Positions 16,077 to 56,200 of a stretch of 64,000 nt of DNA are shown here, one piece after another (position 1 is the stretch's first letter; every line of letters begins with the position of its first letter). The notes under the pieces are model-generated. The model did not search any database and had not been told where the DNA came from. It was given only the letters and a program-made list of their open reading frames with translations. The stretch lies in the NCBI GenBank assembly GCA_963717985.1, contig CAVQYC010000003.1, forward strand, positions 34,314 to 98,313, written 5' to 3'. Source of the DNA: an uncultured delta proteobacterium. Lineage in GTDB: Bacteria > Desulfobacterota > Syntrophorhabdia > Syntrophorhabdales > WCHB1-27. The position numbers and the translations under genes are program-made.

Positions 16077-17228
16077 TCAGATATGGAGCACGTTGCACAG
16101 GACCGTGATGAGCGCCGTTGCCACGACGATGCTGACGATGCCGGTGACAACCGCCGAAGTCGTCGCATTACCCACTGCGGACGCGCTCCGACCGCACTGT
16201 ATCCCTCTCAGACACCCCGAGAGGGCAATGATGACCCCAAAGACGAGGCTATAGAAAAGGCCAATCCATACGTTGGTCAGATGGAGGGATGCCCTGGTCT
16301 CGTTGAGATAGACAGTGGGATTGAGGTCGAGCATCGTGACGCCGACGATCAATCCTCCCAGGATACCCATAAGGTCCGCGTAAATGCAGAGCAGGGGCAT
16401 CATGACAATCAGTGCCAGCATTCTGGGCAGTACCAGGAACTCCATGGGAGAGACCCCAAGGGTTTGCAATGCATCGATCTCCTCGTTCACCTGCATGGTG
16501 CCCAGTTGAGCCGCGTAACTGGCACCGGTACGGCCGGCCATGATGATCCCCGTCATAACGGCACCCATCACCCTGACCATGGCTATGCCCACAAGGTCGG
16601 CTACATAGATCTGGGCACCAAAGGCCTGGAGCTGGATCGCACCCACGAAGGCGAGGATCAGTCCTACAAGCATGCTGATGAGGGAAACAATGGCAAGAGC
16701 CTGGGCACCTGACTCCTGAAGGAATAAAAGCAGGTCGGACCGGCGGAAGGAAGCACGTCCCCCCAGGAGCCTGATGAAGGCGATCCACGCCCCACCGAGG
16801 AAGGCGAGGGCTTCACTGAAAGAAGTCACCCACCCCAGGGCCTTGCCCCCTACGCCTGAAAAGAAGGGCTCTCCGTGGGATTCCTTCCGGGCGCCCTGTC
16901 GCTCAGCTACCGCCGAAGCCAACTGCAGAAGACGCTGTGCGCCTTCAGGGAGCCCCTCGATCCGGCACTCGACCTGTTTCCCTGCACACCATTGCGTGAC
17001 TTTTAGCATGAAGACCAGGAGGTTGCTGTCCCATCCTGTAAGCCCGGAGGCTTCGAAGCTTACACTCCGCAATCCGGACCCAGGCTCAATTACCTTCTGC
17101 ACCTCATCGGTACCCGGCAGATCGTGCCCGATTCGCCAGTCTCCCGAGAGGTGGATGACCAGCAGATCGTTTTCCGGACGACTCACGCTCAACCCGCTAT
17201 TCGCCATTTTCATTTCCGCGACCCGCAT
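16077..17228 (-). CDS. mlaE: MlaE-family ABC permease with an N-terminal STAS-like domain
   Basis: The C-terminal ~260 aa form the MlaE-type permease (..LGVSPMEFLVLPRMLALIVMMPLL..). The N-terminal ~120 aa look STAS/MlaB-like (..LLVIHLSGDWRIG..). Start taken at ATG 17228. Confidence 0.75.
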   Translation of the reverse strand: MRVAEMKMANSGLSVSRPENDLLVIHLSGDWRIGHDLPGTDEVQKVIEPGSGLRSVSFEASGLTGWDSNLLVFMLKVTQWCAGKQVECRIEGLPEGAQRLLQLASAVAERQGARKESHGEPFFSGVGGKALGWVTSFSEALAFLGGAWIAFIRLLGGRASFRRSDLLLFLQESGAQALAIVSLISMLVGLILAFVGAIQLQAFGAQIYVADLVGIAMVRVMGAVMTGIIMAGRTGASYAAQLGTMQVNEEIDALQTLGVSPMEFLVLPRMLALIVMMPLLCIYADLMGILGGLIVGVTMLDLNPTVYLNETRASLHLTNVWIGLFYSLVFGVIIALSGCLRGIQCGRSASAVGNATTSAVVTGIVSIVVATALITVLCNVLHI

Positions 17229-18280: not shown

Positions 18281-18756
18281 GTCACACTAACGGCCTAACA
18301 TACAGGTATAATTGGCTTAGAGGAAATATAAATAACTGACATGCCCCCAAAACGGCCCCTAAAAGTGAAAGTACCCCCCGGTTATGAACATTCCGATCTA
18401 CCCCCGCTCCCGCGCGAAAGGATGAGCACGGGGCGGGGGAGGAGGTACTACTTCACTCAATTATAGGCTCACTCAAGGAGAAAATAAGAAGGACCTTTCG
18501 AGCATGTCGGGAACAGCATCGGGGCTGGTCCTGTGGGCTTGTTACTTAAAACATATCTCAACGCTCTTAAAACCCATCGTCTTTGAGGGGGAGAGGTACC
18601 GAAAGAGAATGGGCCTCAAAAAGAACACACCGGAAAGAAATTGACCATGACCAGCGAGACGTGCTAAAAACTGAGGATAGGGTGCGTACTCTGGGTCGAT
18701 TATAATAATTTGAAAAGGGGTGGGTCCGGTTACTCGAAAAGTCAATCGGAACTAAA

Positions 18757-19308
18757 ATGAACCAAAAAGAATATAAGACCGTAAGAGAAAGGCTGTTTTG
18801 GTCCTATGCAAATCTTGCAATGGCTCATACAGCCGTTGAAAGAGGGCAGGATAAATATGGTACCTTCAACTATATGATAAGGGCAAGATTGTTTAAAGGG
18901 CTGATCGATGGCACTATGAATATAAGAACATTATTTGACGACGAAAGAGTCAAATTATTGTCGGGTCAACGATGTAGCTACTGTGGCTCGACAAACGACT
19001 TAGCTCTTGACCATATTTTTTCTCAGAAATATGGCGGCAAGGATATCGGGGACAATTTGATTTATGCTTGTAGACCTTGTAATAGTTCGAAAGGGAAAAA
19101 GGATTTAATGGAATGGGTGAATTCAAAAGGAATGTTTCCTCCATTAATGATCTTGAGGCGGTATTTGAAACTGATAATTGAATTCTGCATTCAGGAAAAC
19201 CTTATGGACTCTTCTGTGGAGGATTTAAGGAATCACAATTATCCCTTTAACATCGAGCTTGTGCCGATATATTTTCCTAAACCAAACCTTTTGAAAATGA
19301 CAACGTAA
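18757..19308 (+). CDS. HNH endonuclease (183 aa)
   Basis: Motif C-SYCGS..LALDHIFSQKYGGKDIGDNLIYACRPCNSSKGKKDL (CxxC..DH..N..CxxCN). The gene is AT-rich: 33-43% G+C in the two 60-nt lines I counted, against ~57% nearby. It is the only + strand gene in the island. Confidence 0.8.
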   Translation: MNQKEYKTVRERLFWSYANLAMAHTAVERGQDKYGTFNYMIRARLFKGLIDGTMNIRTLFDDERVKLLSGQRCSYCGSTNDLALDHIFSQKYGGKDIGDNLIYACRPCNSSKGKKDLMEWVNSKGMFPPLMILRRYLKLIIEFCIQENLMDSSVEDLRNHNYPFNIELVPIYFPKPNLLKMTT

Positions 19309-20217: not shown

Positions 20218-20300
20218 TTTTTAGAAACCTCCTTGCGGGTACAAAAGGTCAGAAAGGTCAGAAAGTCCGGTTTCGTGTGCCCTTTTCAACCTTTTGTACC

Positions 20301-22151
20301 CTATACAGGTTTAAGAATCTCGGGGTTCACGTCGTACACGGTTGACGGTCTTCCCCCCGTGGTCTTTTTCACTGGTTCGCTGATGATATGCCTGGAAGCG
20401 AGAACCTTTAAGGCCGTTTCCAGGCGGCCTATCGTCCTGAACCGGCGATTCTCTTTGATTGCGTCGCTTTGCTTGAACGTCGGTTCCCCTTTTGCCACAA
20501 TCCACTTGAGCACGGCCTTAGCGTCATTACTGGCCGGGTCCTCGTCCATGAGGTCGAACGCGGCCCGCGCATGACAGATAAGAAGCTCGCACAGGTCAAG
20601 GGCGCGCTCCATGGTCGCTCGATTTATGGTAGAGTTCGACGTGCCATGTTCCACAACATAAAACAGCCCGCCGATACGAAGCGCCGCCCCCGGCAATTTG
20701 CTTGTCCAGTCCTGAATGCTGAAATACTCCCCGTCCGCTCCCTGCTTGCTTTCTATGTACTGGCTGAAACGCTGCCATGCCTTCAAGGCATCGGCGGTTA
20801 AAGTCAATATTCTCGGCTGCTCTTGTCCGTGCTCGTCGTAAATGGGGTCTATTGCCAACAGCACCATGATTCCGGCGCGATATCCCGCCCTGACTGATTC
20901 CGGGATAGTACCCCGGCGCATTACGTCCCTGGTCCCTATGGTGCTTGCGGGTAGGCAGTAGAGGAAGCGGGCAAGCGTCCCGTTTCCGCGAAAGTGTTTC
21001 TTGCGGCCTTCCGCGAGGTCAACTATTATGTCCGTCTGCACGGCAAGACCGAAAGATAGCGCCGGTTTATTCAGCGTGACGGTACGCCCCTGTCGATCAA
21101 CCCGGACCGGCGAGCCTGCGTGTCCTTGTAGGAAGACATTGAGGTTTGCCCGGCCATTGGTGTAAAGCCCTGCCATCACCTCGAATATCCCGCCCTCATC
21201 GGATAAGAGCGCCATGCGCTCGCTATTTTCCGCCATGAGAGCTTGCAACCGCTCCGGGGTAACGTCGTCAGTCCATACTCTCGGGGGCCTTATCTCGTCG
21301 GGGGTTTCATCCTCAATCCGTGTGATGCCCCGTATTGCGCTCTCCCTCTCATCGTCCGGCGTGTCTGGCTTCGCGGCCCTTGCCTTCAACTGGTCGATCC
21401 GCTTAAGATTGATGTCTCGCCGGTGGTTGACTTCCTTGATCTTCGGTTTAAGTTCCTCGGCCTGGTCGTTTTCCCACAAGGTCAACGGTTCGGCCATGGC
21501 GTTCTTGACGGCTGTCTTCCTGTTGCCGGGGTCCAAAGCGGTAACAGTCCAAAGGGCCAAGGGTTCCCTGTAATCATCGGCGTAAGGTGAAACCTCGAAG
21601 CGTTTTTGAAGACATGCCGCAACCGTGGACAGAGCAAACATGACGGCCATCCCCGACGGTGTCTGTGTGGCCTGCGTGACGGCCTGGCAATAATCCCCCA
21701 GGTAGCCGGGCAAGAGGGTACTTGGTAGGTCCGGCGTCTCTATGTCGCCGAAAAGGAGAGGTTCGGGCCATTCCTCATCCGTGTTTACCCTGCCCGCGCT
21801 CTGCTTCGGCCCTTCCATGAAGGCTGCAAGGCTATCATCTCCACTTATGATCTTCCGCGCTTCGTTCCATGTGTGCCCCTGACAGCTATCGTGGAAACAT
21901 TTGTAAAGAAGCTGGCCGCCCGCCGTTTGAAGGATTCCCGCGCCTTTGTGCCCCTGGTCAAAAAGGCAACCATCCGAAAGGACGTAGAGCGTGCCTGCCG
22001 TGATCGTCTTGACCGTGTATGCTCTCCCATAGTGATCGAGGTACGCAGCCACGTCGAGACGGGCCTTGCCGTCGTCCGCCTGTTTCGGCGGCTCCTGCTC
22101 GGGGAACATGGCCCGTGCCCGCTCCATCGCCTCTGCGCTCATGGTGCTCAT
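20301..22151 (-). CDS. DUF3987 (YfjI-like) replicative helicase-like protein with an N-terminal Cys/His zinc module
   Basis: 616 aa. The N-terminus has ..CLFDQGHKGAG..YKCFHDSCQGHTW.., and the central/C-terminal region matches the DUF3987 architecture seen next to primases in integrative elements (recall). Its start overlaps the primase stop by 4 nt. Confidence 0.6.
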   Translation of the reverse strand: MSTMSAEAMERARAMFPEQEPPKQADDGKARLDVAAYLDHYGRAYTVKTITAGTLYVLSDGCLFDQGHKGAGILQTAGGQLLYKCFHDSCQGHTWNEARKIISGDDSLAAFMEGPKQSAGRVNTDEEWPEPLLFGDIETPDLPSTLLPGYLGDYCQAVTQATQTPSGMAVMFALSTVAACLQKRFEVSPYADDYREPLALWTVTALDPGNRKTAVKNAMAEPLTLWENDQAEELKPKIKEVNHRRDINLKRIDQLKARAAKPDTPDDERESAIRGITRIEDETPDEIRPPRVWTDDVTPERLQALMAENSERMALLSDEGGIFEVMAGLYTNGRANLNVFLQGHAGSPVRVDRQGRTVTLNKPALSFGLAVQTDIIVDLAEGRKKHFRGNGTLARFLYCLPASTIGTRDVMRRGTIPESVRAGYRAGIMVLLAIDPIYDEHGQEQPRILTLTADALKAWQRFSQYIESKQGADGEYFSIQDWTSKLPGAALRIGGLFYVVEHGTSNSTINRATMERALDLCELLICHARAAFDLMDEDPASNDAKAVLKWIVAKGEPTFKQSDAIKENRRFRTIGRLETALKVLASRHIISEPVKKTTGGRPSTVYDVNPEILKPV

Positions 22152-23923: not shown

Positions 23924-24048
23924 TTTCGTTTCACCTCTCCTCGTTCCTGAAAGAACAGGCAGACGCCGGAGATTGCGTTTTTCGGCCCGTCGGCCTATCT
24001 CCCTTTTCAACCTTTCTGACCTTTTGTACCCTATACAGGGTTTCGCTT

Positions 24049-25451: not shown

Positions 25452-25472
25452 TAAAAAAGCTCCCCGGGCAGG
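25452..25472. repeat. proximal att repeat (attL) overlapping the tRNA-Asn 3' end
   Basis: aaaaaagctccccgggcagga. See the 18263-18280 feature for its partner. Confidence 0.6.
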
Positions 25473-25532
25473 ACTCGAACCTGCAACCTACTGGTTAACA
25501 GCCAGCCGCTACTGCCGATTGAGCTACCGGGG
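25459..25532 (-). tRNA. tRNA-Asn (anticodon GUU), CCA not encoded
   Basis: Folded by hand into a 74-nt cloverleaf. Acceptor TCCCCGG/CCGGGGA; anticodon stem GCTGG/CCAGT with loop CT-GTT-AA; T arm GCAGG-TTCGAGT-CCTGC; discriminator G. The D stem has only 3 bp. Confidence 0.9.
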
Positions 25533-25573
25533 AAACGATTACAGTAAACACGAAAAACGGCAGAATGTCAATA

Positions 25574-29127: not shown

Positions 29128-29446
29128 GGTCCCCCCTTCAGTAGAACCTGAAGGGACAGCACGAGGGTCGAATTTTCTAAGTCACGGGTGACAAGTTATG
29201 CCCCAACCTCCGAAAAGTCAGAAAACTATTTATATTGAGCTGCTGCTTCCCCGTTACTGCCCCTAAAGAATAGCCCCGCGATGCCGTGTAAACAGTAAGT
29301 CTTGAACCTCTCAAGATAAGTGGGCGCCTTTTTCTTGCTTCACGCGTCTCGCACTCAGACGAGCATGCAGTCTGCAATAAGAGAAGGCTCCCCGCAAAGA
29401 GGTGTTGGCTCGAAGTTTACCATTTATCACGCACACCGCAGGGAAT

Positions 29447-29704
29447 CTATACGTTTTCAACCTTTCTCAAGAGCCTCAGCGTGTTGTCTTCGACTTTCTC
29501 GAACCGCTCCTTCATATCCATGTAGTTATCGGCAACCCTCATCATTGCCATGATAACCGTATTCAGCGTGTTTACGATCCCAAATTCCTGCGCCACCCCC
29601 GCTATTTCCTGGTCGACGAACCGGGCGACTTTTCTGATCTTCTCCTCATCATCACCAACGAAAGTAAATGACTGATTGAGTATAGTGACTTCCACTCTGT
29701 GCAA
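29447..29704 (-). CDS. zapA: cell division protein ZapA
   Basis: 85 aa. VEVTILNQSFTFVGDDEEKIRKVARFVDQEI.. is a typical ZapA. Confidence 0.8.
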   Translation of the reverse strand: MHRVEVTILNQSFTFVGDDEEKIRKVARFVDQEIAGVAQEFGIVNTLNTVIMAMMRVADNYMDMKERFEKVEDNTLRLLRKVENV

Positions 29705-29994: not shown

Positions 29995-31069
29995 GCCTTG
30001 ATGAACTGGTCAAGGTCTCCGTCGAGCACGCTTTCAGCGTTATGCACCTCCAGTTTTGTGCGGTGGTCCTTGATAAGCTTGTAGGGATGGAGCGTGTACG
30101 AGCGGATCTGGCTACCCCATGAAATGTCCTTCTTCTCCTTGTTCAGCAGGTCCATCTTCTCATCCTGCTTCTTCTTCTCCAGCCGCATAGACCCTTGACT
30201 TCAAAATGGCCATAGCGATGGCCTTGTTCTTGTGCTGCGACCGCTCGTTCTGGCACTGAACCACTATGTTGGTCGGCAAATGGGTGATCCGTATGGCCGA
30301 TTCCGTCCTGTTGACGTGCTGTCCCCCGGGTCCGCTCGCGCGGAAGGTGTCGATCTTCAAGTCCTCATCCCGGATGTCAACCTGAATGCTCTCCGGGATC
30401 TCCGGATAGGCATAGACCGAGGCAAACGACGTGTGTCTCCTGGCATTCGCGTCGAAAGGCGAGATACGCACGAGGCGATGAATCCCGTTCTCGCACTTCA
30501 GGTAGCCATAGGCATACGCGCCTTTTACGAGGAACGTGACGTTCTTGATGCCCGCCTCTTCTCCGGGCAGCAGGTCGACAACCTGCGACTCGAACCCCTT
30601 CCTCTCCGCCCACTTGAGGTACATGCGCAGGAGCATTTCCGCCCAGTCCTGCGCCTCTGTTCCTCCAGCCCCGGCGTTTATATACATGATGGCGCTTTCC
30701 TCGTCATTCTCCTCGGCGAGCATCCGCTCTATCTCGAACCTGTTAAGCTCGGCGTCGAGGGTCTCGACCCGGCGCTCCAGCTCTCCGATGTCTCCGGGGT
30801 CCCCTGCCTCTTTTGCGAAGTCACTCAGAATAAGGATCTCCTCCAGCTCCGTCTCCTTGCTCTCCCAGCGCTGCACCTCGTCCTGCAGCCTGGCCCTTTC
30901 CCGGAGCAGCTTCTGCGCCTTTTCCTGGTCTTCCCAAAAGTCTTTTTGCGCTAGGGTTTGATCGTACTCGCTGATGCGCGCTTTGAGGGCAGGTGCGTCA
31001 AAGATAACCTCTGAGCGCCTGCATGCGGTCGATAAGCGTATCCGTTCTCGCTTTTATGTCATCTATCAT
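29955..31069 (-). CDS. prfB: peptide chain release factor 2, with the programmed +1 frameshift plus one additional unexpected frameshift near 30185
   Basis: [26 protein letters not shown], then the +1 frame reads [14 protein letters not shown]..., with SPF (RISPFD) and GGQ (GPGGQHVN) motifs. ..AILKSRVY is then cut off, and the sequence continues in another frame as [35 protein letters not shown]... Confidence 0.9.
30997..31012 (-). promoter_or_regulatory. prfB programmed +1 frameshift site with an internal SD-like element
   Basis: The minus strand reads AGAGGT TAT CTT TGA C. Compare E. coli AGGGGG TAT CTT TGA C. Confidence 0.85.
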
Positions 31070-31157
31070 GATTGCACCACCATCTTTCGGTTATGGCCGC
31101 TCCCGTCTTTCCAGGGAAGCGCCTTTGTCGCTCCTTTTCCGCTTTACAGCGGCCCCG

Positions 31158-31214
31158 TTATTCCTCGGCTTTGGTGAGATCCTCAAACTTAATATCCAGC
31201 CCCAGGACCGCCAC
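31158..31214. repeat. 57-bp perfect second copy of the last 18 codons plus stop of the 31294..33105 gene
   Basis: 31158-31214 is identical to 31294-31350. Both copies start with the stop-codon complement tta. Confidence 0.95.
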
Positions 31215-31293
31215 ATACAATTACCGGGGTTCAGCACCCCCTCCATCGGCGGAGCCGCCGGAGCCTCCCCGCTCACAAAGCATGAAAAAAGCC
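31215..31293. repeat. GC-rich intergenic repeat element, copy A (79 bp)
   Basis: atacaattaccggggttcagcaccccctccatcggcggagccgccggagcctccccgctcacaaagcatgaaaaaagcc. It aligns with copies at 33119, 48652 and 56157 (reverse complement). Confidence 0.9.
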
Positions 31294-33105
31294 TTATTCC
31301 TCGGCTTTGGTGAGATCCTCAAACTTAATATCCAGCCCCAGGACCGCCACTATCTCTCCGGTCTCGTCATGTATCGGGCCTGAAACGGTAATACAGAGGG
31401 CGCCGGTTATTCTTGACGTGTAGAGACCCGTCACCGATATCCTGCCGGTCGAGAGCGGCTGGATGAACCAATCCCTGTCCGAGAAATCTTCATGCAGGTC
31501 TATCTTGGCGTACTTTGCCCTGTCCACCGCCTGGGTGATGTTCCTGGTGACCTTCACTCCTTCCGCGTTGACCACATAAGCAAACTGTATGTACGGGTAC
31601 TCGGCCACGAGTCCCTTGAGCACCCCTTCCTGCCGCTCGGGCTCCATGCTCTTTATATCATCCTCTTCGATATAGCGCTCGATCAGATGGGCGGCCATAT
31701 CGTGGGCACTCTTCTTCAGCATATCGAATTCGGACGGGAAGACTTCGGGCATGTACCGGCGGACCATATGTTCCATCTCCTCGTCAGACATGGCGGTCAC
31801 CCTGCCCTCCTCATACTGCTTCAGAATCCGCTTGTTTATCCTTGCGACACCCGGATGGGTTTTTTCAATTGCGTCCTCTCCGATCAGGGCAAAATGGGAA
31901 TTGATCCAGTGGGCTATGCCTGCAAGGCCTGATTTGTCGGTGAGATTTATCGTTATCGGCCTGTTGAGTATTCTCTTTGTGTCGAAGGCGGTATATATCT
32001 CCTCGTTTTTTGCGAGCCCGTCGATGTGGACGCCGGCGGAGGTCGCATTGAAATCCGAGCCGACAAACGGTTGATTTCGGGGTATGTGGAGACCCACCTC
32101 CTTCTCGAAATAATTCCTCATCTCCGTAATCACCTTGGTATCGATCCCGTTGTCATCGCCGACGAGCGAGATATACTCCATAATAAGCGCCTCTATGGGG
32201 GTGTTCCCTGTTCGTTCCCCCATGCCCAGAAGGGCGCCGTTTACGAACGTGCACCCGTAGAGCCATGCACTCACCGCGCCGACCACTCCCCTGTAGAAAT
32301 CGTTATGTCCGTGCCATTCGAGGCAATCGGAAGGTACACCGGCATCATCGATCATGGCCCTGATGATCTTTCCCACGGAGCGCGGCAAGGCGGCCCCAGG
32401 ATAAGTAATACCGAGACCGAGGGTGTCGCACAACCGTATCTTTATGGGTATCTTCGCCTCTTCCGACAGGGACATGAGGGCCTGTGCAAAGGGCACACAA
32501 AACCCGTAAATATCGGCCCTCGTCACGTCTTCAAAATGACACCGCGGCATGATGCCGGCATCGAGAGCCGCCTCAACGACTTTCAAATAACCCTTGAATA
32601 CCTCGGCCCTCGTTTTGTGAAACTTGTAGAATATGTGATAATCGGAAATGCTCGTGAGCATACCTGTCTCTTTCAGGCCGAAATCCTTCACAAGCTGCAG
32701 ATCTTCCTTGCTGGCCCGAATCCAACCCGTAATTTCCGGATACCGATATCCTTTTTCGAGGCATTTCGTCACCGCTTCCTTGTCCTTCTCGGTGTAGAGA
32801 AAAAACTCGGATTGACGTATCACCCCGTTCGGCCCGCTCAACCGGTGGAGAAGATTGAAAATGTCCTCGATCTGTTTTACAGAGAAAGGGGGCCTCGCTT
32901 GCTGGCCGTCCCTGAAGGTCGTGTCCGTGATGAAGATCTCGTCAGGGGGGTCTATTGACTCGATCTTGTGGTCGAAACTGACCCTTACCATATCGGTATA
33001 GGGGAACACGTTCCGGAAAAGCTCGGGCTCTTTCACATCGATGAGCGGGAACCTGGTGCTCTTTACCGTATTCTTGAAGATAAAACCTTTCCGCTTTTTC
33101 GCCAA
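31294..33105 (-). CDS. HMGL-family acyl-CoA:2-oxoacid condensing enzyme (homocitrate/isopropylmalate/Re-citrate-synthase-like) fused to a C-terminal Cache/PDC-like domain
   Basis: Contains ITDTTFRDGQQA, ..EWHGHNDF.. and GERTGN (DRE-TIM metallolyase motifs). The last ~120 aa read ..DRDWFIQPLSTGRISVTGLYTSRITGALCITVSGPIHDETGEIVAVLGLDIKF, the Cache_1-type signature. TTG start at 33105. Confidence 0.7.
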   Translation of the reverse strand: MAKKRKGFIFKNTVKSTRFPLIDVKEPELFRNVFPYTDMVRVSFDHKIESIDPPDEIFITDTTFRDGQQARPPFSVKQIEDIFNLLHRLSGPNGVIRQSEFFLYTEKDKEAVTKCLEKGYRYPEITGWIRASKEDLQLVKDFGLKETGMLTSISDYHIFYKFHKTRAEVFKGYLKVVEAALDAGIMPRCHFEDVTRADIYGFCVPFAQALMSLSEEAKIPIKIRLCDTLGLGITYPGAALPRSVGKIIRAMIDDAGVPSDCLEWHGHNDFYRGVVGAVSAWLYGCTFVNGALLGMGERTGNTPIEALIMEYISLVGDDNGIDTKVITEMRNYFEKEVGLHIPRNQPFVGSDFNATSAGVHIDGLAKNEEIYTAFDTKRILNRPITINLTDKSGLAGIAHWINSHFALIGEDAIEKTHPGVARINKRILKQYEEGRVTAMSDEEMEHMVRRYMPEVFPSEFDMLKKSAHDMAAHLIERYIEEDDIKSMEPERQEGVLKGLVAEYPYIQFAYVVNAEGVKVTRNITQAVDRAKYAKIDLHEDFSDRDWFIQPLSTGRISVTGLYTSRITGALCITVSGPIHDETGEIVAVLGLDIKFEDLTKAEE

Positions 33106-33118
33106 CTCCTCCCCCTAG

Positions 33119-33193
33119 CAATTATTGGGGCTCAGCGCCCCCTCCTCGGCGAAGCCTCGGAGCCTCCCCGCTCGGCTCGCTTCGCTCGATTAT
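33119..33193. repeat. GC-rich intergenic repeat element, copy B
   Basis: caattattggggctcagcgccccctcctcggcgaagcctcggagcctccccgctcggctcgcttcgctcgattat. Its tail abuts the aspS stop codon at 33194. Confidence 0.9.
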
Positions 33194-34954
33194 CTATTCC
33201 TTCGTCACCCTCAGCCTCAGGTCGCTGAGCTGCCTCGGCTTAACCGGTGCCGGAGCGCCGGACAGCAGACAGGTGCCCTTCTGCGTCTTTGGGAACGGGA
33301 TCACGTCCCTTATGCTGTCGAGGCCCAGGAGCATCATCAGGATGCGGTCGATCCCGAAAGCAAAGCCCCCGTGGGGAGGTGCGCCCATCTCCAACGCTTC
33401 GAGGAGAAAACCGAACTGCTCGACGGCCTCTTCTTCCTTGAAGCCGAGGAGCTTGAACATCTCCATCTGCTCGTCTTTCCGGTGTATCCTGATGCTGCCC
33501 CCGCCAATCTCCGCCCCGTTCAGCACGAGGTCGTACGCCTTTGCCTGCATCGATTCGTAGTCGCCGCCGAATTCCTGAATGCTGCCTTTCGGCGACGTAA
33601 ACGGGTGATGGCGGGCAACATACCTTTTCTCTTCCGCGCTGTATTCAAAGAGCGGGAAATTGACGACCCACAGGAAAGAGTCGTCGCCTTTCCTCACGAG
33701 GTCGTACTTCTCTCCGAGATAGAGGCGAAACCTCCCCATGATATCGTTTACTTTAGCGCGCGCATCGGCCATAATGAAAAGCACGTCGCCGTCCGCGAGG
33801 CCGCATCGCGCGTCTATGGCCGCGGTCTCCTCTTCCTTCAGGTACTTCACTATGGGCGACACGAGCTTCCCCGCATCCTTGCGCATCCAGATGAGGCCGC
33901 CCGCGCCGAGGGTCTTCGCCGTGTCGACGGCTGTGTCGAGGTCTTTCCGGGAAAGGGACCTGGACTTCAGCGCAATGCCCTTTATGGCCCCTCCATTGCC
34001 CACAACGTTCTTGAACACGCCAAATTCAGTCGACCGGAACAACGGGGTCAGCTCTTCCATGGGCAGATCGAACCTGAGGTCGGGCTTATCCGTCCCATAA
34101 CGCTCCATCGCCTCGGAATAATCCATCCGTCTGAAAGGACCGGCAAGGGGCGTTTTCTTTATCGATTCGTAAAGCACAGCCATGGCGCCCTCAACTAACG
34201 CGATGACGTCTTCCACATCCACAAAGCTCATCTCCAGATCGAGCTGGGTGAACTCCGGCTGCCGGTCCGCCCTCAGGTCTTCATCCCTGAAGCATCGCGC
34301 CAACTGGAAGTATTTTTCAAAACCCGCTACCATCAGTATCTGCTTGAAGAGCTGGGGTGATTGCGGAAGCGCGTAAAACTGGCCCTGATTCAACCTGCTC
34401 GGGACGATGAAATCGCGAGCCCCCTCAGGTGTGCTCTTGGTGAGAAAAGGCGTCTCGATCTCGAAAAAGCCCTGCGACGACAGGTAGCTCCGCACTGCCA
34501 TCCCCGCCGCGCTCCGCAGGATAAACGTCTCCCGCACCTTCGGGCGGCGCATGTCCAGGTACCGATACTTCAATCTGAGGAACTCATTCGGCTCCTCTTC
34601 GGTATCGAGCTCGTCGACCTGGAAAGGCAGAGGCTTGCAGGTGTTGAGTACCGTAAGGGTGGAAACGAGCACCTCGATTCCTCCCGTGGGGATATTGGGG
34701 TTCTCCGTGCCTTCGGGCCTCGGCGCTACCGTGCCTTCGATGCGGATCACATACTCCTGCTTGATCTCATGCGCTTCCTTATGGGCGACAGGGGCTATCT
34801 CGGGAGAGAAGACCACCTGCACAATGCCGCTCACATCCCTCAGATCGAGGAAGATGAGACCGCCGTGATCGCGTCTTCTGAACACCCATCCCGCCAGCTC
34901 TACGCTCATTCCCACATCGACTACCGAGAGCGTTCCACAGTACCGGTTTCTCAA
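33194..34954 (-). CDS. aspS: aspartate--tRNA ligase
   Basis: ..RYCGTLSVVDVGMSVELAGWVFRRRDHGGLIFLDLRD.. and class II motifs (..FRDEDLRADRQPEFTQLD.., ..GGGSIRIH..). I chose the TTG start at 34954, 6 nt after GGAGGAGG, and discarded the 78-aa ORF-track extension. 586 aa. Confidence 0.9.
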   Translation of the reverse strand: MRNRYCGTLSVVDVGMSVELAGWVFRRRDHGGLIFLDLRDVSGIVQVVFSPEIAPVAHKEAHEIKQEYVIRIEGTVAPRPEGTENPNIPTGGIEVLVSTLTVLNTCKPLPFQVDELDTEEEPNEFLRLKYRYLDMRRPKVRETFILRSAAGMAVRSYLSSQGFFEIETPFLTKSTPEGARDFIVPSRLNQGQFYALPQSPQLFKQILMVAGFEKYFQLARCFRDEDLRADRQPEFTQLDLEMSFVDVEDVIALVEGAMAVLYESIKKTPLAGPFRRMDYSEAMERYGTDKPDLRFDLPMEELTPLFRSTEFGVFKNVVGNGGAIKGIALKSRSLSRKDLDTAVDTAKTLGAGGLIWMRKDAGKLVSPIVKYLKEEETAAIDARCGLADGDVLFIMADARAKVNDIMGRFRLYLGEKYDLVRKGDDSFLWVVNFPLFEYSAEEKRYVARHHPFTSPKGSIQEFGGDYESMQAKAYDLVLNGAEIGGGSIRIHRKDEQMEMFKLLGFKEEEAVEQFGFLLEALEMGAPPHGGFAFGIDRILMMLLGLDSIRDVIPFPKTQKGTCLLSGAPAPVKPRQLSDLRLRVTKE

Positions 34955-48404: not shown

Positions 48405-48590
48405 ATGCCCGGAACTGTTACGAAGTGTCCCTTTTCCAAGATTGAATGCAGGGAGTGCCCCCTCTACAGGGGACGCCATAGCTATGTCGTCCAGAAAGAA
48501 GGCGACGAGGCCCCTGCCGGCAGAGTGCTCAAACAGGATAACGACGACTGGCAGGAGAAGTTTAAGGAAGCCCTCGGCCGCAAGGTCTGA
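48405..48590 (+). CDS. small Cys-rich hypothetical protein (61 aa)
   Basis: MPGTVTKCPFSKIECRECPLYRG.. (C-x7-C-x2-C). RBS GAGGAAGAAG. Confidence 0.4.
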   Translation: MPGTVTKCPFSKIECRECPLYRGRHSYVVQKEGDEAPAGRVLKQDNDDWQEKFKEALGRKV

Positions 48591-48596
48591 TAGAAG

Positions 48597-48651
48597 CTAC
48601 GCGCCCTTTCCCCCTACGATAATCTCAGGCATTCTCAGCGTCGGCTGGGCG
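48597..48651. repeat. 55-bp perfect second copy of the tldD 3' end (last 17 codons plus stop)
   Basis: 48597-48651 is identical to 48729-48783. Both copies start with the stop-codon complement cta. Confidence 0.95.
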
Positions 48652-48728
48652 CAATTACTGGGGCTAGCGTCGCCCCCTCCACCGGCGGAGCCGTCGGAGC
48701 CTCCCCCTCAAAGAAAAGCTATACCAGT
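48652..48728. repeat. GC-rich intergenic repeat element, copy C (77 bp)
   Basis: caattactggggctagcgtcgccccctccaccggcggagccgtcggagcctccccctcaaagaaaagctataccagt. Confidence 0.9.
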
Positions 48729-50108
48729 CTACGCGCCCTTTCCCCCTACGATAATCTCAGGCATTCTCAGCGTCGGCTGGGCGTCCGCCACTGGCACGCC
48801 CTGCCCGTCTTTGCCGCAGGTGCCGATGCCGAAGCCTAAGTCATTGCCCACCATATCGATATCCTTCAATGCCTTCGGGCCGTTTCCCATCATAGTGGCA
48901 TTCCTCACCATGGGCCCGACCTGCCCCTTCTCGATCAGGTACCCCTCCTGTATCTCGAAGACGAAATCGCCGCGGACCGTATCTACCTGGCCTCCTCCCA
49001 TCTTCCTGACCAGAAGGCCGCTGTCGACGGAAGCGATGATGGCGTCCGGGTCATCGAAGCCGGGGAGGATCAGGGTATTGCTCATGCGCGGGATGGGTTT
49101 GTAGCGAAAGGATTCGCGCCTCCCGTTCCCTGTCGACGAATAACCGTATTTCATCGCATGAAAGCGGTCGAAAAGATAGTTTTTCAAGACGCCCTGCTCG
49201 ACGAGCAGGGTCCTCTCGGAGACCGTTCCTTCATCATCGTAGGCATAGGTGCCTCTTCGATGCGGGAGCGTCTTGTCGTCAACGATGCTGACGAGGGGGT
49301 TCGCTATCGATTGGCCGAGCATCCCTTTGTAGCAGGAAAGCCCTTCCATGGCAAGGTCCGCCTCCAGGCCATGGCCGATGGCCTCGTGTATCATGGTGCC
49401 CCCGGCCTCTGATGCGAGCACTACCGTCTTCGTACCCATGGGTGCCTCGCATGCGCCCAGCAGCCCGGACAACCTCGCCACGGTCGCCCTGACAAACGTC
49501 TCTATCCGTTCCTCGGTGAGAAACTCGAAGCCGCAAAACCCGCCTATCGCCTCGTAAGCGGTTTGCAGGACCCCTGCCTCTTCGCCCACCACAAGCAGGG
49601 TCACGACGAGCTGCGTCCTCTTGTCTTCCACCCTGGTCCCGTCGCTCGCGGCAACCCTGACGTGCTGGCTCGTATCCCGGTAGAATACCTTCACCTGTGT
49701 GATCCTCTTCTCCATCTTCCGGGCCATGTCTCCAATGGAGCGGACGACGTCGAGCTTCTCATGTGTGTCCACGTCGCCCGGCGGGACCGCGATGAGAAAC
49801 GGGTAACGCGCCGTGTGGAGACTCCCTGCCTGCACCCCGCCCGGCCCACTTGCGCCCTGCGCGGTGCGGACCAGCTCTTTCGAGAGATCGACCAAATGAC
49901 TCTCCTCCCGGGAATTGGTGGAGGCGAAGAAGGTTTGCCAGGGCCTTATCACCCTTAACCCCACACCGCTGTCCACACCCTTTTCCAGCTTCTCTATCTT
50001 CTCCGATTCGAGTTGGATCTGTGTGGATGCCGTCTCTTCCTCAAACGTCTCCGCATAAAGCACGTCCCCGGCCGAAAGGGCCGCCAGCACCTTCGTCTCA
50101 TCAAACAT
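48729..50108 (-). CDS. tldD: TldD-family metalloprotease
   Basis: 459 aa. HEAIGHGLEAD (HExxxH) and the C-terminal ..GTCGKDGQGVPV... Confidence 0.85.
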   Translation of the reverse strand: MFDETKVLAALSAGDVLYAETFEEETASTQIQLESEKIEKLEKGVDSGVGLRVIRPWQTFFASTNSREESHLVDLSKELVRTAQGASGPGGVQAGSLHTARYPFLIAVPPGDVDTHEKLDVVRSIGDMARKMEKRITQVKVFYRDTSQHVRVAASDGTRVEDKRTQLVVTLLVVGEEAGVLQTAYEAIGGFCGFEFLTEERIETFVRATVARLSGLLGACEAPMGTKTVVLASEAGGTMIHEAIGHGLEADLAMEGLSCYKGMLGQSIANPLVSIVDDKTLPHRRGTYAYDDEGTVSERTLLVEQGVLKNYLFDRFHAMKYGYSSTGNGRRESFRYKPIPRMSNTLILPGFDDPDAIIASVDSGLLVRKMGGGQVDTVRGDFVFEIQEGYLIEKGQVGPMVRNATMMGNGPKALKDIDMVGNDLGFGIGTCGKDGQGVPVADAQPTLRMPEIIVGGKGA

Positions 50109-51302: not shown

Positions 51303-51436
51303 ATCTCCCGCTCCCCGCTCAATTCCCGGGGCTCGCGTCGCCCCCTCCATGAGCAAGCTCATGGAGCCACCCCCTCATAAAAAGGAAGATACATTTGGCG
51401 CTTCATGCTGACCACTCCCGTGTTTCATGAACCTTT

Positions 51437-55021: not shown

Positions 55022-56086
<1,065 letters not shown>

Positions 56087-56156
56087 GCGCCAACGTGTGC
56101 CTGCTTTTTTTGTGGGCACCCCGCCTGTCGCCCGTGGCCTGTACGAAGCGGGTCGT

Positions 56157-56192
56157 GGCTTCGCCGAGGAGGGGGCGCTGAGCCCCAATAAT
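56157..56192. repeat. GC-rich intergenic repeat element, copy D core (reverse orientation)
   Basis: ggcttcgccgaggagggggcgctgagccccaataat is the exact reverse complement of 33122-33157. The divergent tail extends left to about 56088, right behind the mreB stop. Confidence 0.9.
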
Positions 56193-56200
56193 AAACAGCG

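Follow-up and report, generated by a model that had tools for sequence, protein, structure and literature searches.

In a 64-kb stretch of DNA from an uncultured member of the Syntrophorhabdales (contig CAVQYC010000003.1; the whole stretch is called the window in the following), the 3' end of the gene tldD carries a genuine insertion of a small non-coding repeat, here termed E, i.e., the locus is neither a rearrangement nor an artefact. The element lies between two copies (A) of the last 55 nt of the gene, giving the order A-E-A, and both tldD and the convergent open reading frame (ORF) beyond it are intact. E is a Syntrophorhabdales-specific repeat family that resembles repetitive extragenic palindromic (REP) elements or miniature inverted-repeat transposable elements (MITEs). 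The relation of filled to empty site, the origin of the duplication from target DNA, the structured multi-copy family at gene junctions and the recurrence of the arrangement are directly supported. Our best reading, to which we assign about an even chance, is the insertion of a REP/MITE-like non-autonomous element by which a long, staggered stretch of target, anchored at the stop codon, was duplicated.

An insertion at the 3' end of tldD

The two 55-mers are 100% identical, with a start-to-start spacing of 132 nt (Table 1), as stated in an earlier sequence-only description of this locus (the original prediction). Exact direct repeats of at least 20 nt are restricted in the window to this pair, the pair of a sister locus at 31 kb and one unrelated 21-mer. 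Given that there are only these three, chance is excluded as the origin of the tldD pair. The gene-contiguous copy opens, in plus coordinates, exactly at CTA, i.e., the reverse complement of the tldD TAG. On the other side, a gap of 6 nt (48591-48596) separates the stop of the convergent ORF from the orphan copy, such that this ORF and tldD would indeed be only 6 nt apart without the insert. In gene orientation, the element reads as a variable left arm ACTGGTATAGC followed by TTTTCTTTGAGGGGGAGG, hairpin 1, hairpin 2 and the tail AGTAATTG. This 77-nt middle segment (48652-48728) has a 31-nt core in common with its 79-nt counterpart at the sister locus; the core exactly matches a degenerate pattern, and both segments have the same orientation relative to their respective genes, which agrees with the earlier description.

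Table 1. Positions of tldD, its neighbour, the element E and further E copies in the window.
Feature	Position	Strand	Description
tldD	48729-50108	-	459 aa, intact ORF, PmbA/TldD family; Pfam PF01523/PF19290/PF19289 recorded for identical protein
A-left, 55-nt repeat copy 1	48729-48783	-	true tldD 3' end, last 52 coding nt + TAG; continuous with reading frame
A-right, 55-nt repeat copy 2	48597-48651	-	orphan tldD 3' end including TAG; no upstream reading frame; missing from L015 empty site
Element E, T-type subfamily	48652-48728	-	77 nt between the two 55-mers; model R1 match 48652-48713, 81 bits, E=1e-15
Hairpin 1 of E	48677-48699	-	CTCC-GA-CGGC-TCC-GCCG-GT-GGAG
Hairpin 2 of E	48660-48676	-	GGGGC-GACGCTA-GCCCC
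Convergent Cys-rich ORF	48405-48590	+	61 aa; position conserved in relatives L015, L012, L018
Sister case A-E-A	31158-31350	-	57-nt perfect duplication: 31294-31350 functional, 31158-31214 orphan; spacing 136 nt
E copy, sister locus (model R1)	31218-31277	-	73 bits
E copy, G-type left arm (model R1)	33119-33176	-	60 bits; between aspS stop (TAG 33194-33196) and start of 603-aa gene; no flanking duplication
E copy (model R1)	51320-51380	-	73 bits; between ksgA and HGD-D gene; no significant flanking duplication
E copy, partial or diverged (model R1)	56142-56194	+	28 bits; downstream of mreB stop (56084-56086)

An exact empty site is found in the relative L015 (NCBI PLSJ01000075.1), whose TldD is 87% identical. 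Here, the tldD stop is followed by 8 nt and the stop of the convergent ORF, with neither E nor a second 55-nt copy in between. This bears out the view that the duplicated block is target-derived and not part of the element. The orphan tldD-end copy has, most likely, no function itself and arose as a by-product.

The original prediction had left room for a systematic assembly artefact, e.g., a loop in a de Bruijn graph with k=55 that threads the same 55-mer twice. It is true that 55 is a common assembler k-mer size and that three tldD cases measure exactly 55 nt. The remaining duplications are 22/32, 42, 42 and 57 nt long, and a fixed k-mer artefact is rejected since the lengths differ between sites. 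Furthermore, the identical TldD protein is encoded on contigs of four other assemblies (two ENA samples, one of them on an 811-kb contig, and two NCBI assemblies), all of which show the same A-E-A and are 99.95-100% identical to the window over 2.6-7.4 kb. These assemblies come from different centres with different contig naming styles and include contigs of 0.46-0.81 Mb that are, judged from names and sizes, probably based on long reads. What lies between the repeats is in every case a diverged member of one structured family, a third repeat copy in L017 shows two substitutions, and L021 retains a decayed relic. We thus regard an artefact as extremely improbable.

Sequence, structure and distribution of the E family

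The family was built by pattern scans of public genomes and metagenomes, then with regular expressions and then with a covariance model (R1). The latter places E at 22 positions in about 350 kb of related sequence, i.e., 5 in the window and 17 in related loci (numbered with the prefix L), which confirms that the middle segments at tldD and at 31 kb are copies of the same element. E is about 60-95 nt long (up to 98 nt). Its core spans about 60 nt and contains two conserved hairpins, and the arms on either side are variable. In gene orientation, the core reads (T-run)TGAGGGGGAGG, hairpin 1, GGGGC-loop-GCCCC and AATAATTG. Two kinds of left arm are observed, namely T-type (TTTTTTGAGGGGG) and G-type (CGAGCGAAGCGAGCCGAGCGGGG), and the outer arms differ among copies in length and sequence (left arm 3-39 nt).

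Among 13 distinct copies, the positions of the two-hairpin structure can pair in 96.4% of cells compared to 37-56% when the partners are slid. Five pairs are changed on both sides, and the covariation score exceeds that of all 500 shuffles. For hairpin 1, 94.5% of cells are paired and 4/10 pairs show both-side changes; hairpin 2 is paired in 100% of cells with one compensatory pair change (C-G to U-A). The inner stem of hairpin 1 is hypervariable and reads CGGC/GCCG, GAGC/GCTC, ATGAG/CTCAT or GACGGGC/GCCCGTC depending on the copy. The single-sequence fold energy of E is no better than that of shuffled sequences, i.e., the structure is visible only in the family comparison. The sequence before hairpin 2 is GTGG in some copies and GAGG, ATGG, GTCG, TTGG or CTGG in others; this site is part of the hairpin 1 stem.

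With regard to location, E is found after stop codons, between operon genes or just upstream of ribosome-binding sites, and it is co-oriented with the flanking genes at 15/16 sites. Clusters of E, observed at the L012 ksgA junction, the L026 aspS junction and L017 tldD, are all head-to-tail. Names recorded for homologues place the host in the Syntrophorhabdales. The family is abundant in some lineages of this order, namely the window organism, L005, L012 and L017; model R1 finds no E in 12-21-kb syntenic stretches of L015, L016, L018, L019 and L030. No match of E to Rfam 15 is obtained even at an E-value of 10, except for one chance match of 12 bits. Terminal inverted repeats are absent from E, a consensus scan reveals neither an intrinsic terminator nor a sigma-70 promoter within it, and, the G-type arm itself aside, its arms have no match of at least 15 nt to nearby sequence or another locus that could serve as donor flank.

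A coding role of E was considered, given an Arg-rich frame (LRGRLRRLRRWRGRR) that runs through some copies. It is ruled out by a 1-nt indel in the sister copy that breaks every frame as well as by the spacings of 132, 136 and 140 nt, which are not all multiples of three. The same evidence rules out read-through of tldD, i.e., a C-terminal extension of its product. In the region around position 8759 of L021, an E relic lies in frame ahead of the HGD-D gene and extends the N-terminus of its product.

Scans of viral contigs yielded one E-like copy and two unrelated hairpins. The former (L023:1107-1168, minus strand, 73 bits) is located on a viral-classified contig (IMG/VR UViG 2721755143) and lies in frame in an ORF starting with MKDQNQPQRGVEGEALRALPVEGATRAP. 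Separately, a motif GCCGCGAAG(G/C)GG adjoins E copies at L005:4682-4714, L005:6385-6410 and L008:1350-1375; this possible small hairpin may be a second small repeat associated with E.

Long duplications and the stop codon

For 18 E sites, we compared 110 nt on each side for duplicated sequence. The outcome is bimodal, i.e., seven sites show highly significant long duplications (Table 2) and the rest show no significant one. These seven independent sites support the earlier argument that recurrence points to a mechanism; as a refinement, many members of the family have no flanking duplication at all. Among these are the copy directly behind aspS, the tandem pair at ksgA of L012, the L021 relic at the HGD-D gene and the E-like copy on the IMG/VR contig.

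Table 2. Long duplications flanking E and where they end relative to the stop codon.
Site	Duplication	End relative to stop codon
Window tldD	55 nt	0 nt
Window 603-aa gene (31 kb)	57 nt	0 nt
L005 (L005/L009) PaaK-like gene	42 nt	+2 nt
L012 tldD	55 nt	+1 nt
L017 tldD	55 nt, 145-nt-period array A-E-A-E-A'	0 nt
L022 mreB	22 nt perfect, or 32 nt with one mismatch	0 nt (perfect part); +10 nt with mismatch extension
L014	42 nt	E antisense; covers stop/start junction, not anchored at stop

The claim that the duplicated block starts exactly at the stop codon holds in part. In the six cases with sense-oriented E, the duplication ends 0-2 nt past the stop codon, where L022 is counted on its perfect 22 nt. 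It does not hold for the antisense case L014, for which the 42 nt run from the last five codons and the stop of one gene over a single base into 23 nt at the start of the following gene. Since this duplication spans the stop/start junction, both genes are left intact.

For E copies without perfect duplications, a search for decayed ones provides only weak similarities of 9-13 nt, which are not significant (p about 0.1-0.2) and lie around start codons at 51.3 kb of the window and at L005:6.3 kb. A motif common to both duplication boundaries, i.e., the same nicking site on both strands, was not found.

The tldD end among relatives

E together with the 55-nt duplication is present at the tldD end in three lineages, namely those of the window, L012 and L017. 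Window and L017 agree in the first duplicated nucleotide, and the start in L012 lies 1 nt further along. Within the L017 array (L017:11314-11657), the first two units are identical, and the distal copy differs by GAATAG to GAGTAA, i.e., a synonymous change and a different stop codon. Only a decayed orphan tldD end is left in L021, and further tldD orthologues without E are found in L016, L018, L019/L020 and L022.

In the TldD tree, window and L012 are sisters (90% identical) with the empty L015 adjoining, and L017 is placed in another clade with L016 and L022 (both empty at tldD) and L021 (relic). That is, the lineages with occupied tldD end are distributed in a patchy manner. Compared with E at unrelated loci of other organisms, the E core at tldD of the window shows 93% identity; for E at the orthologous site, the value is 68% (L012) or 61% (L017). 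The left arm is T-type in the window and G-type in L012 and L017. Because the three E copies stem from different subfamilies, these sequence comparisons favour independent insertions into the same tldD interval over one ancient event.

The sister locus and further copies in the window

At the sister locus, the duplicated sequence is the 3' end of a 603-aa gene (HMGL-like + dCache), and E lies between the copies at 31215-31293 (79 nt). An empty site is observed in L030-L032, while an E remnant alone is present in L026-L028; in L026 (94% identical), about 20-26 nt of apparently the same E are kept after the stop and there is no orphan copy. Both 57-mers of the window carry the same derived substitutions at three or more positions, as judged against L026, L029 and L030. 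From this pattern, it appears that either the duplication is younger than its E or the copies have been homogenised.

With regard to the remaining copies (Table 1), ksgA and the HGD-D gene overlap (ATGA) in genomes without E at their junction, and the right half of the copy downstream of mreB is a 36-nt inverted match to 33121-33156. The release factor 2 gene prfB (about 30160-31070, minus strand), which lies downstream of the sister locus, is split over two frames around CTTTGAC at 30997-31003, which is the classical programmed +1 frameshift site and is conserved in L026, L029 and L030.

Possible origins of the duplication

Under the insertion reading, a trans-acting enzyme would nick the two strands 22-57 bp apart with one nick just after TAA/TAG. 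E would then be joined between the nicks and the gaps filled, by which the target would be duplicated to A-E-A. At tldD, this would place E directly 3' of the stop codon and duplicate the 55 bp of target ending at the stop. We infer that staggered nicks 55 bp apart plus gap filling are the simplest one-step route from the empty site to A-E-A. Target duplications classically originate in this way, but the stagger would here be exceptionally long and variable. The perfect direct repeats would subsequently drive slipped-strand or unequal exchange, which could expand the unit, make the copies uniform or remove E precisely. That such exchange does occur is evident from the L017 array. Precise deletion would explain that old, widely shared E copies are without duplications and that the duplication-flanked ones are perfect. 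The bimodal pattern fits such a life cycle, where perfect repeats either delete E precisely or are homogenised. E copies without repeats would be stable, and some of them are common to the same junctions in the window organism and the L012/L026 lineage.

Several observations weigh against this reading. For about half of the E copies, no flanking duplication can be detected, and the duplication length is not constant. In L012, E sits inside the 3' end of ksgA and itself supplies the stop codon, i.e., two tandem copies (L012:5829-5954, minus strand) replace the last ksgA codons such that the gene now ends at a TGA inside E. E has no inverted ends and its arms are ragged, which is unusual for a transposase-excised element, and the sequences examined contain no gene for a transposase, integrase or reverse transcriptase that is linked to E; in particular, tblastn finds no Y1 transposase in the window or the E-bearing loci, and the only Y1 genes observed are those of L018, in which no E was found. 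Given the shared derived substitutions of the sister 57-mers and the E remnant in L026, perfect identity of the repeats is no proof of a recent event. Finally, we know of no DNA-level mark of a stop codon that would account for the anchoring. As a conjecture, the anchoring could result if insertion prefers sites 3' of TAA/TAG and purifying selection acts on a compact genome in addition. A bolder idea, which we consider doubtful, is that an undescribed enzyme or RNA-guided system recognises the end of a translated or transcribed gene, nicks after the stop and sets the second nick two to five helical turns upstream. It would yield site-specific, repeatable duplications of 22-57 nt, and different E subtypes would independently have used the same 55-nt tldD interval as target in three lineages.

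Among the alternatives, template switching has a minor yet appreciable chance. A polymerase would leave its template at the stop, copy E elsewhere and re-enter 22-57 nt upstream, which would produce A-E-A in one step and without a dedicated transposase; the stable hairpins would make E a hot spot of stalling and switching. The variable arms on both sides of the core indeed resemble imprecise copy end-points or filler, the duplication lengths vary, tandem E-E and A-E-A-E-A' arrays are slippage-type events at E, and the junctions between E tail and A start show possible microhomologies of 1-3 nt, e.g., AATTGAGCG vs GCGCAG in L012. However, two precise switches are required, the departure at the stop codon as well as the use of the same 55-nt tldD interval in three lineages are left unexplained, and the about 350 kb examined contain no donor copy with matching arms. 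The ragged arms would also be accounted for, with less likelihood, by an RNA-templated origin; neither route would explain the stop anchoring and the 55-nt interval any better than the insertion reading. For the RNA-mediated variant, an antisense E transcript with an A-rich 3' tail would be reverse-transcribed from a nick after the stop and a variable second nick would follow, as for long and short interspersed elements (LINE/SINE). It would agree with one fixed junction (the stop codon, beside the A/T-rich end of E) and one variable junction, with the varying extra bases at the A/T-rich end and varying duplication lengths, and with the strong orientation bias relative to transcription (15/16 sites). 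On the other hand, no reverse transcriptase gene is seen near any E copy, the A-run is short (3-6 A) and interrupted, and to our knowledge no such bacterial mechanism exists except for group II introns, which make no duplication. We thus rate it as very unlikely.

A further alternative, which we judge unlikely, concerns the history rather than the original mechanism: E would have entered tldD once in a common ancestor, the copies would have been kept identical by expansion/contraction or gene conversion, E would have drifted or been overwritten, and repeat-mediated loss would have emptied the site elsewhere. This would suit the start at the same nucleotide (within 1 nt) and the same length of 55 nt in the window, L012 and L017, the decayed orphan end in L021, and the sister-locus copies that are identical despite their shared derived substitutions. 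The distal L017 copy differs only at its outer edge, as expected if the interior is homogenised by exchange. Against a single event stand the different subfamilies of the three tldD copies (cores of 61-68% identity vs 93% to unrelated loci) and the empty site of L015, which branches with window and L012; furthermore, perfect 55-nt repeats that are 77 nt apart should vanish quickly unless selected. Hardly credible is, in the end, that A-E-A is the remnant of a site-specific integrative element that brought a replacement gene 3' end, like the att duplications at tRNA or protein genes. As generally understood, such elements typically leave a direct repeat of the gene 3' end (discussed in PMC2853133), but here each locus has its own gene-specific repeat, which in every lineage equals the allele of the host itself, the insert measures merely 68-98 nt, and no integrase is nearby.

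Comparison with known systems

E works like a non-autonomous repeat of the REP or MITE kind but departs from both families in defining traits, i.e., it has no inverted ends, no short fixed duplication and no alternating clusters, and no RAYT gene was found in the window and the E-bearing loci. Like REP elements and bacterial interspersed mosaic elements (BIMEs), i.e., short GC-rich imperfect palindromes, E keeps its stems by compensatory changes, has many extragenic copies at gene 3' ends and between operon genes, and forms tandem clusters. In contrast to them, no RAYT gene is found next to E, a conserved GT(A/G)G head is not evident, and the clusters are direct tandem repeats where REP/BIME clusters alternate in orientation. 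The rolling-circle model for RAYT does not yield a single E between two target copies, and transposition of the IS200/IS605 type causes no target duplication. The closest published precedent for a gene 3' end duplicated beside a small repeat is provided by the four reported cases in which the 3' end of rayt and the spacer to the REP are captured between the REPs of a BIME (Nunvar et al. 2010, PMC2817692). MITEs such as Correia, RUP and MITEAba12 resemble E in being small, non-coding and present in many copies, in lying between genes or at gene ends, and in having target duplications on both sides. Their terminal inverted repeats and short fixed duplications (2-10 bp) are both lacking in E, and no parent insertion sequence with the ends of E is seen in the host-genome fragments examined.

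Long duplications are known from two other systems. The target direct repeats of IS1634/IS1549 measure 8-514 bp and vary between copies (PMC2266710), i.e., they extend far beyond a helical turn and are variable as for E. Members of this family are 1.5-2 kb long with a DDE transposase and inverted ends, whereas E has 60-95 nt, is non-coding and has no inverted ends; no IS1634-type gene is seen in the sequences examined. For restriction-modification (R-M) genes, 'insertion with long target duplication' has been described, in some cases overlapping gene 3' ends (Nobusato 2000; Furuta et al. 2010, PMC2853133). As for E, filled and empty sites can be compared, the repeats of more than 30 bp are unique to the site and sometimes cover a gene 3' end, and there is no mobility gene. 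When comparing the window with L015 and the sister locus with L030, we find the same combination, i.e., a filled/empty pair, a repeat of more than 30 bp that occurs once in the empty site, and no mobility gene. Apart from what is inserted, E thus qualifies operationally as an 'insertion with long target duplication': R-M inserts comprise kilobases of unrelated genes, while here it is always one small repeat family with one boundary at the stop codon. For both systems, the long variable duplications were published without a mechanism (PMC2266710, PMC2853133).

Two more systems share single traits with E, as far as their commonly described properties go. In integration by CRISPR (clustered regularly interspaced short palindromic repeats) Cas1-Cas2 and casposons, two attacks that are a repeat length apart (24-48 bp) duplicate the target around the insert, and the L017 A-E-A-E-A' with its degenerate distal copy formally resembles a CRISPR mini-array. 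But the insert is a conserved element and not a variable spacer, the duplicated sequence is locus-specific, and no cas1 is seen. Tn7 inserts at attTn7 downstream of glmS, i.e., just past the stop of a conserved gene that is spared, and at the same site across species; it differs by its 5-bp duplication, its length of 14 kb and its own targeting protein. A diversity-generating retroelement is rejected, as the copies are 100% identical without adenine differences and the neighbouring genes listed include no reverse transcriptase domain. In the literature, we found no specific prior description of REP/MITE elements with long duplications or of Syntrophorhabdus repeats.

Few parts of bacterial genomes are as poorly understood as the small intergenic repeats (REP, BIME and MITE elements), and the spread of REP-like elements is still a matter of debate. 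The E family offers a clean view of insertion via its filled/empty pairs and the long duplications that mark the points of strand opening. Most surprising are the anchoring at the stop codon and the recurrent 55-nt interval of tldD; the family also shows repeated use of the same site by different subfamilies. If a dedicated enzyme makes the duplication, it would represent a new kind of strand transfer; if an undescribed enzyme or RNA-guided system reads gene ends, a new mode of both target choice and strand transfer for a prokaryotic mobile element; and if templates are switched at the hairpins, E would be a natural system to study how structured repeats seed local duplications. On the practical side, orphan gene ends, E-derived stops (ksgA in L012) and N-terminal extensions (HGD-D gene in L021) affect gene calling in uncultured syntrophs.

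Other features of the window and its relatives

A 6S RNA (Rfam RF00013, 85.6 bits; 29269-29447, minus strand) and one tRNA gene (25460-25533, minus strand) are the sole Rfam matches at gathering score in the window. In L018, two Y1 (IS200/IS605-type) transposase genes (16724-17047 and 18572-18997) are accompanied by rve and DDE transposase genes; these genes are found on a 1.95-Mb contig, a few kb downstream of tldD, and no E is present in the 21 kb examined there. At L029:9724-12260, a tRNA-synthetase gene is followed by genes for a phage-type integrase and an AlpA-like protein, which probably belong to an integrated element unrelated to E. Finally, the window contains a second short intergenic repeat, CCCTTTTCAACCTTT..GACCTTTTGTACCCTATACAGG, which is unrelated to E and occurs twice in direct orientation about 3.7 kb apart (20237-20309 and 24002-24039), with a partial inverted copy at 20237-20258.

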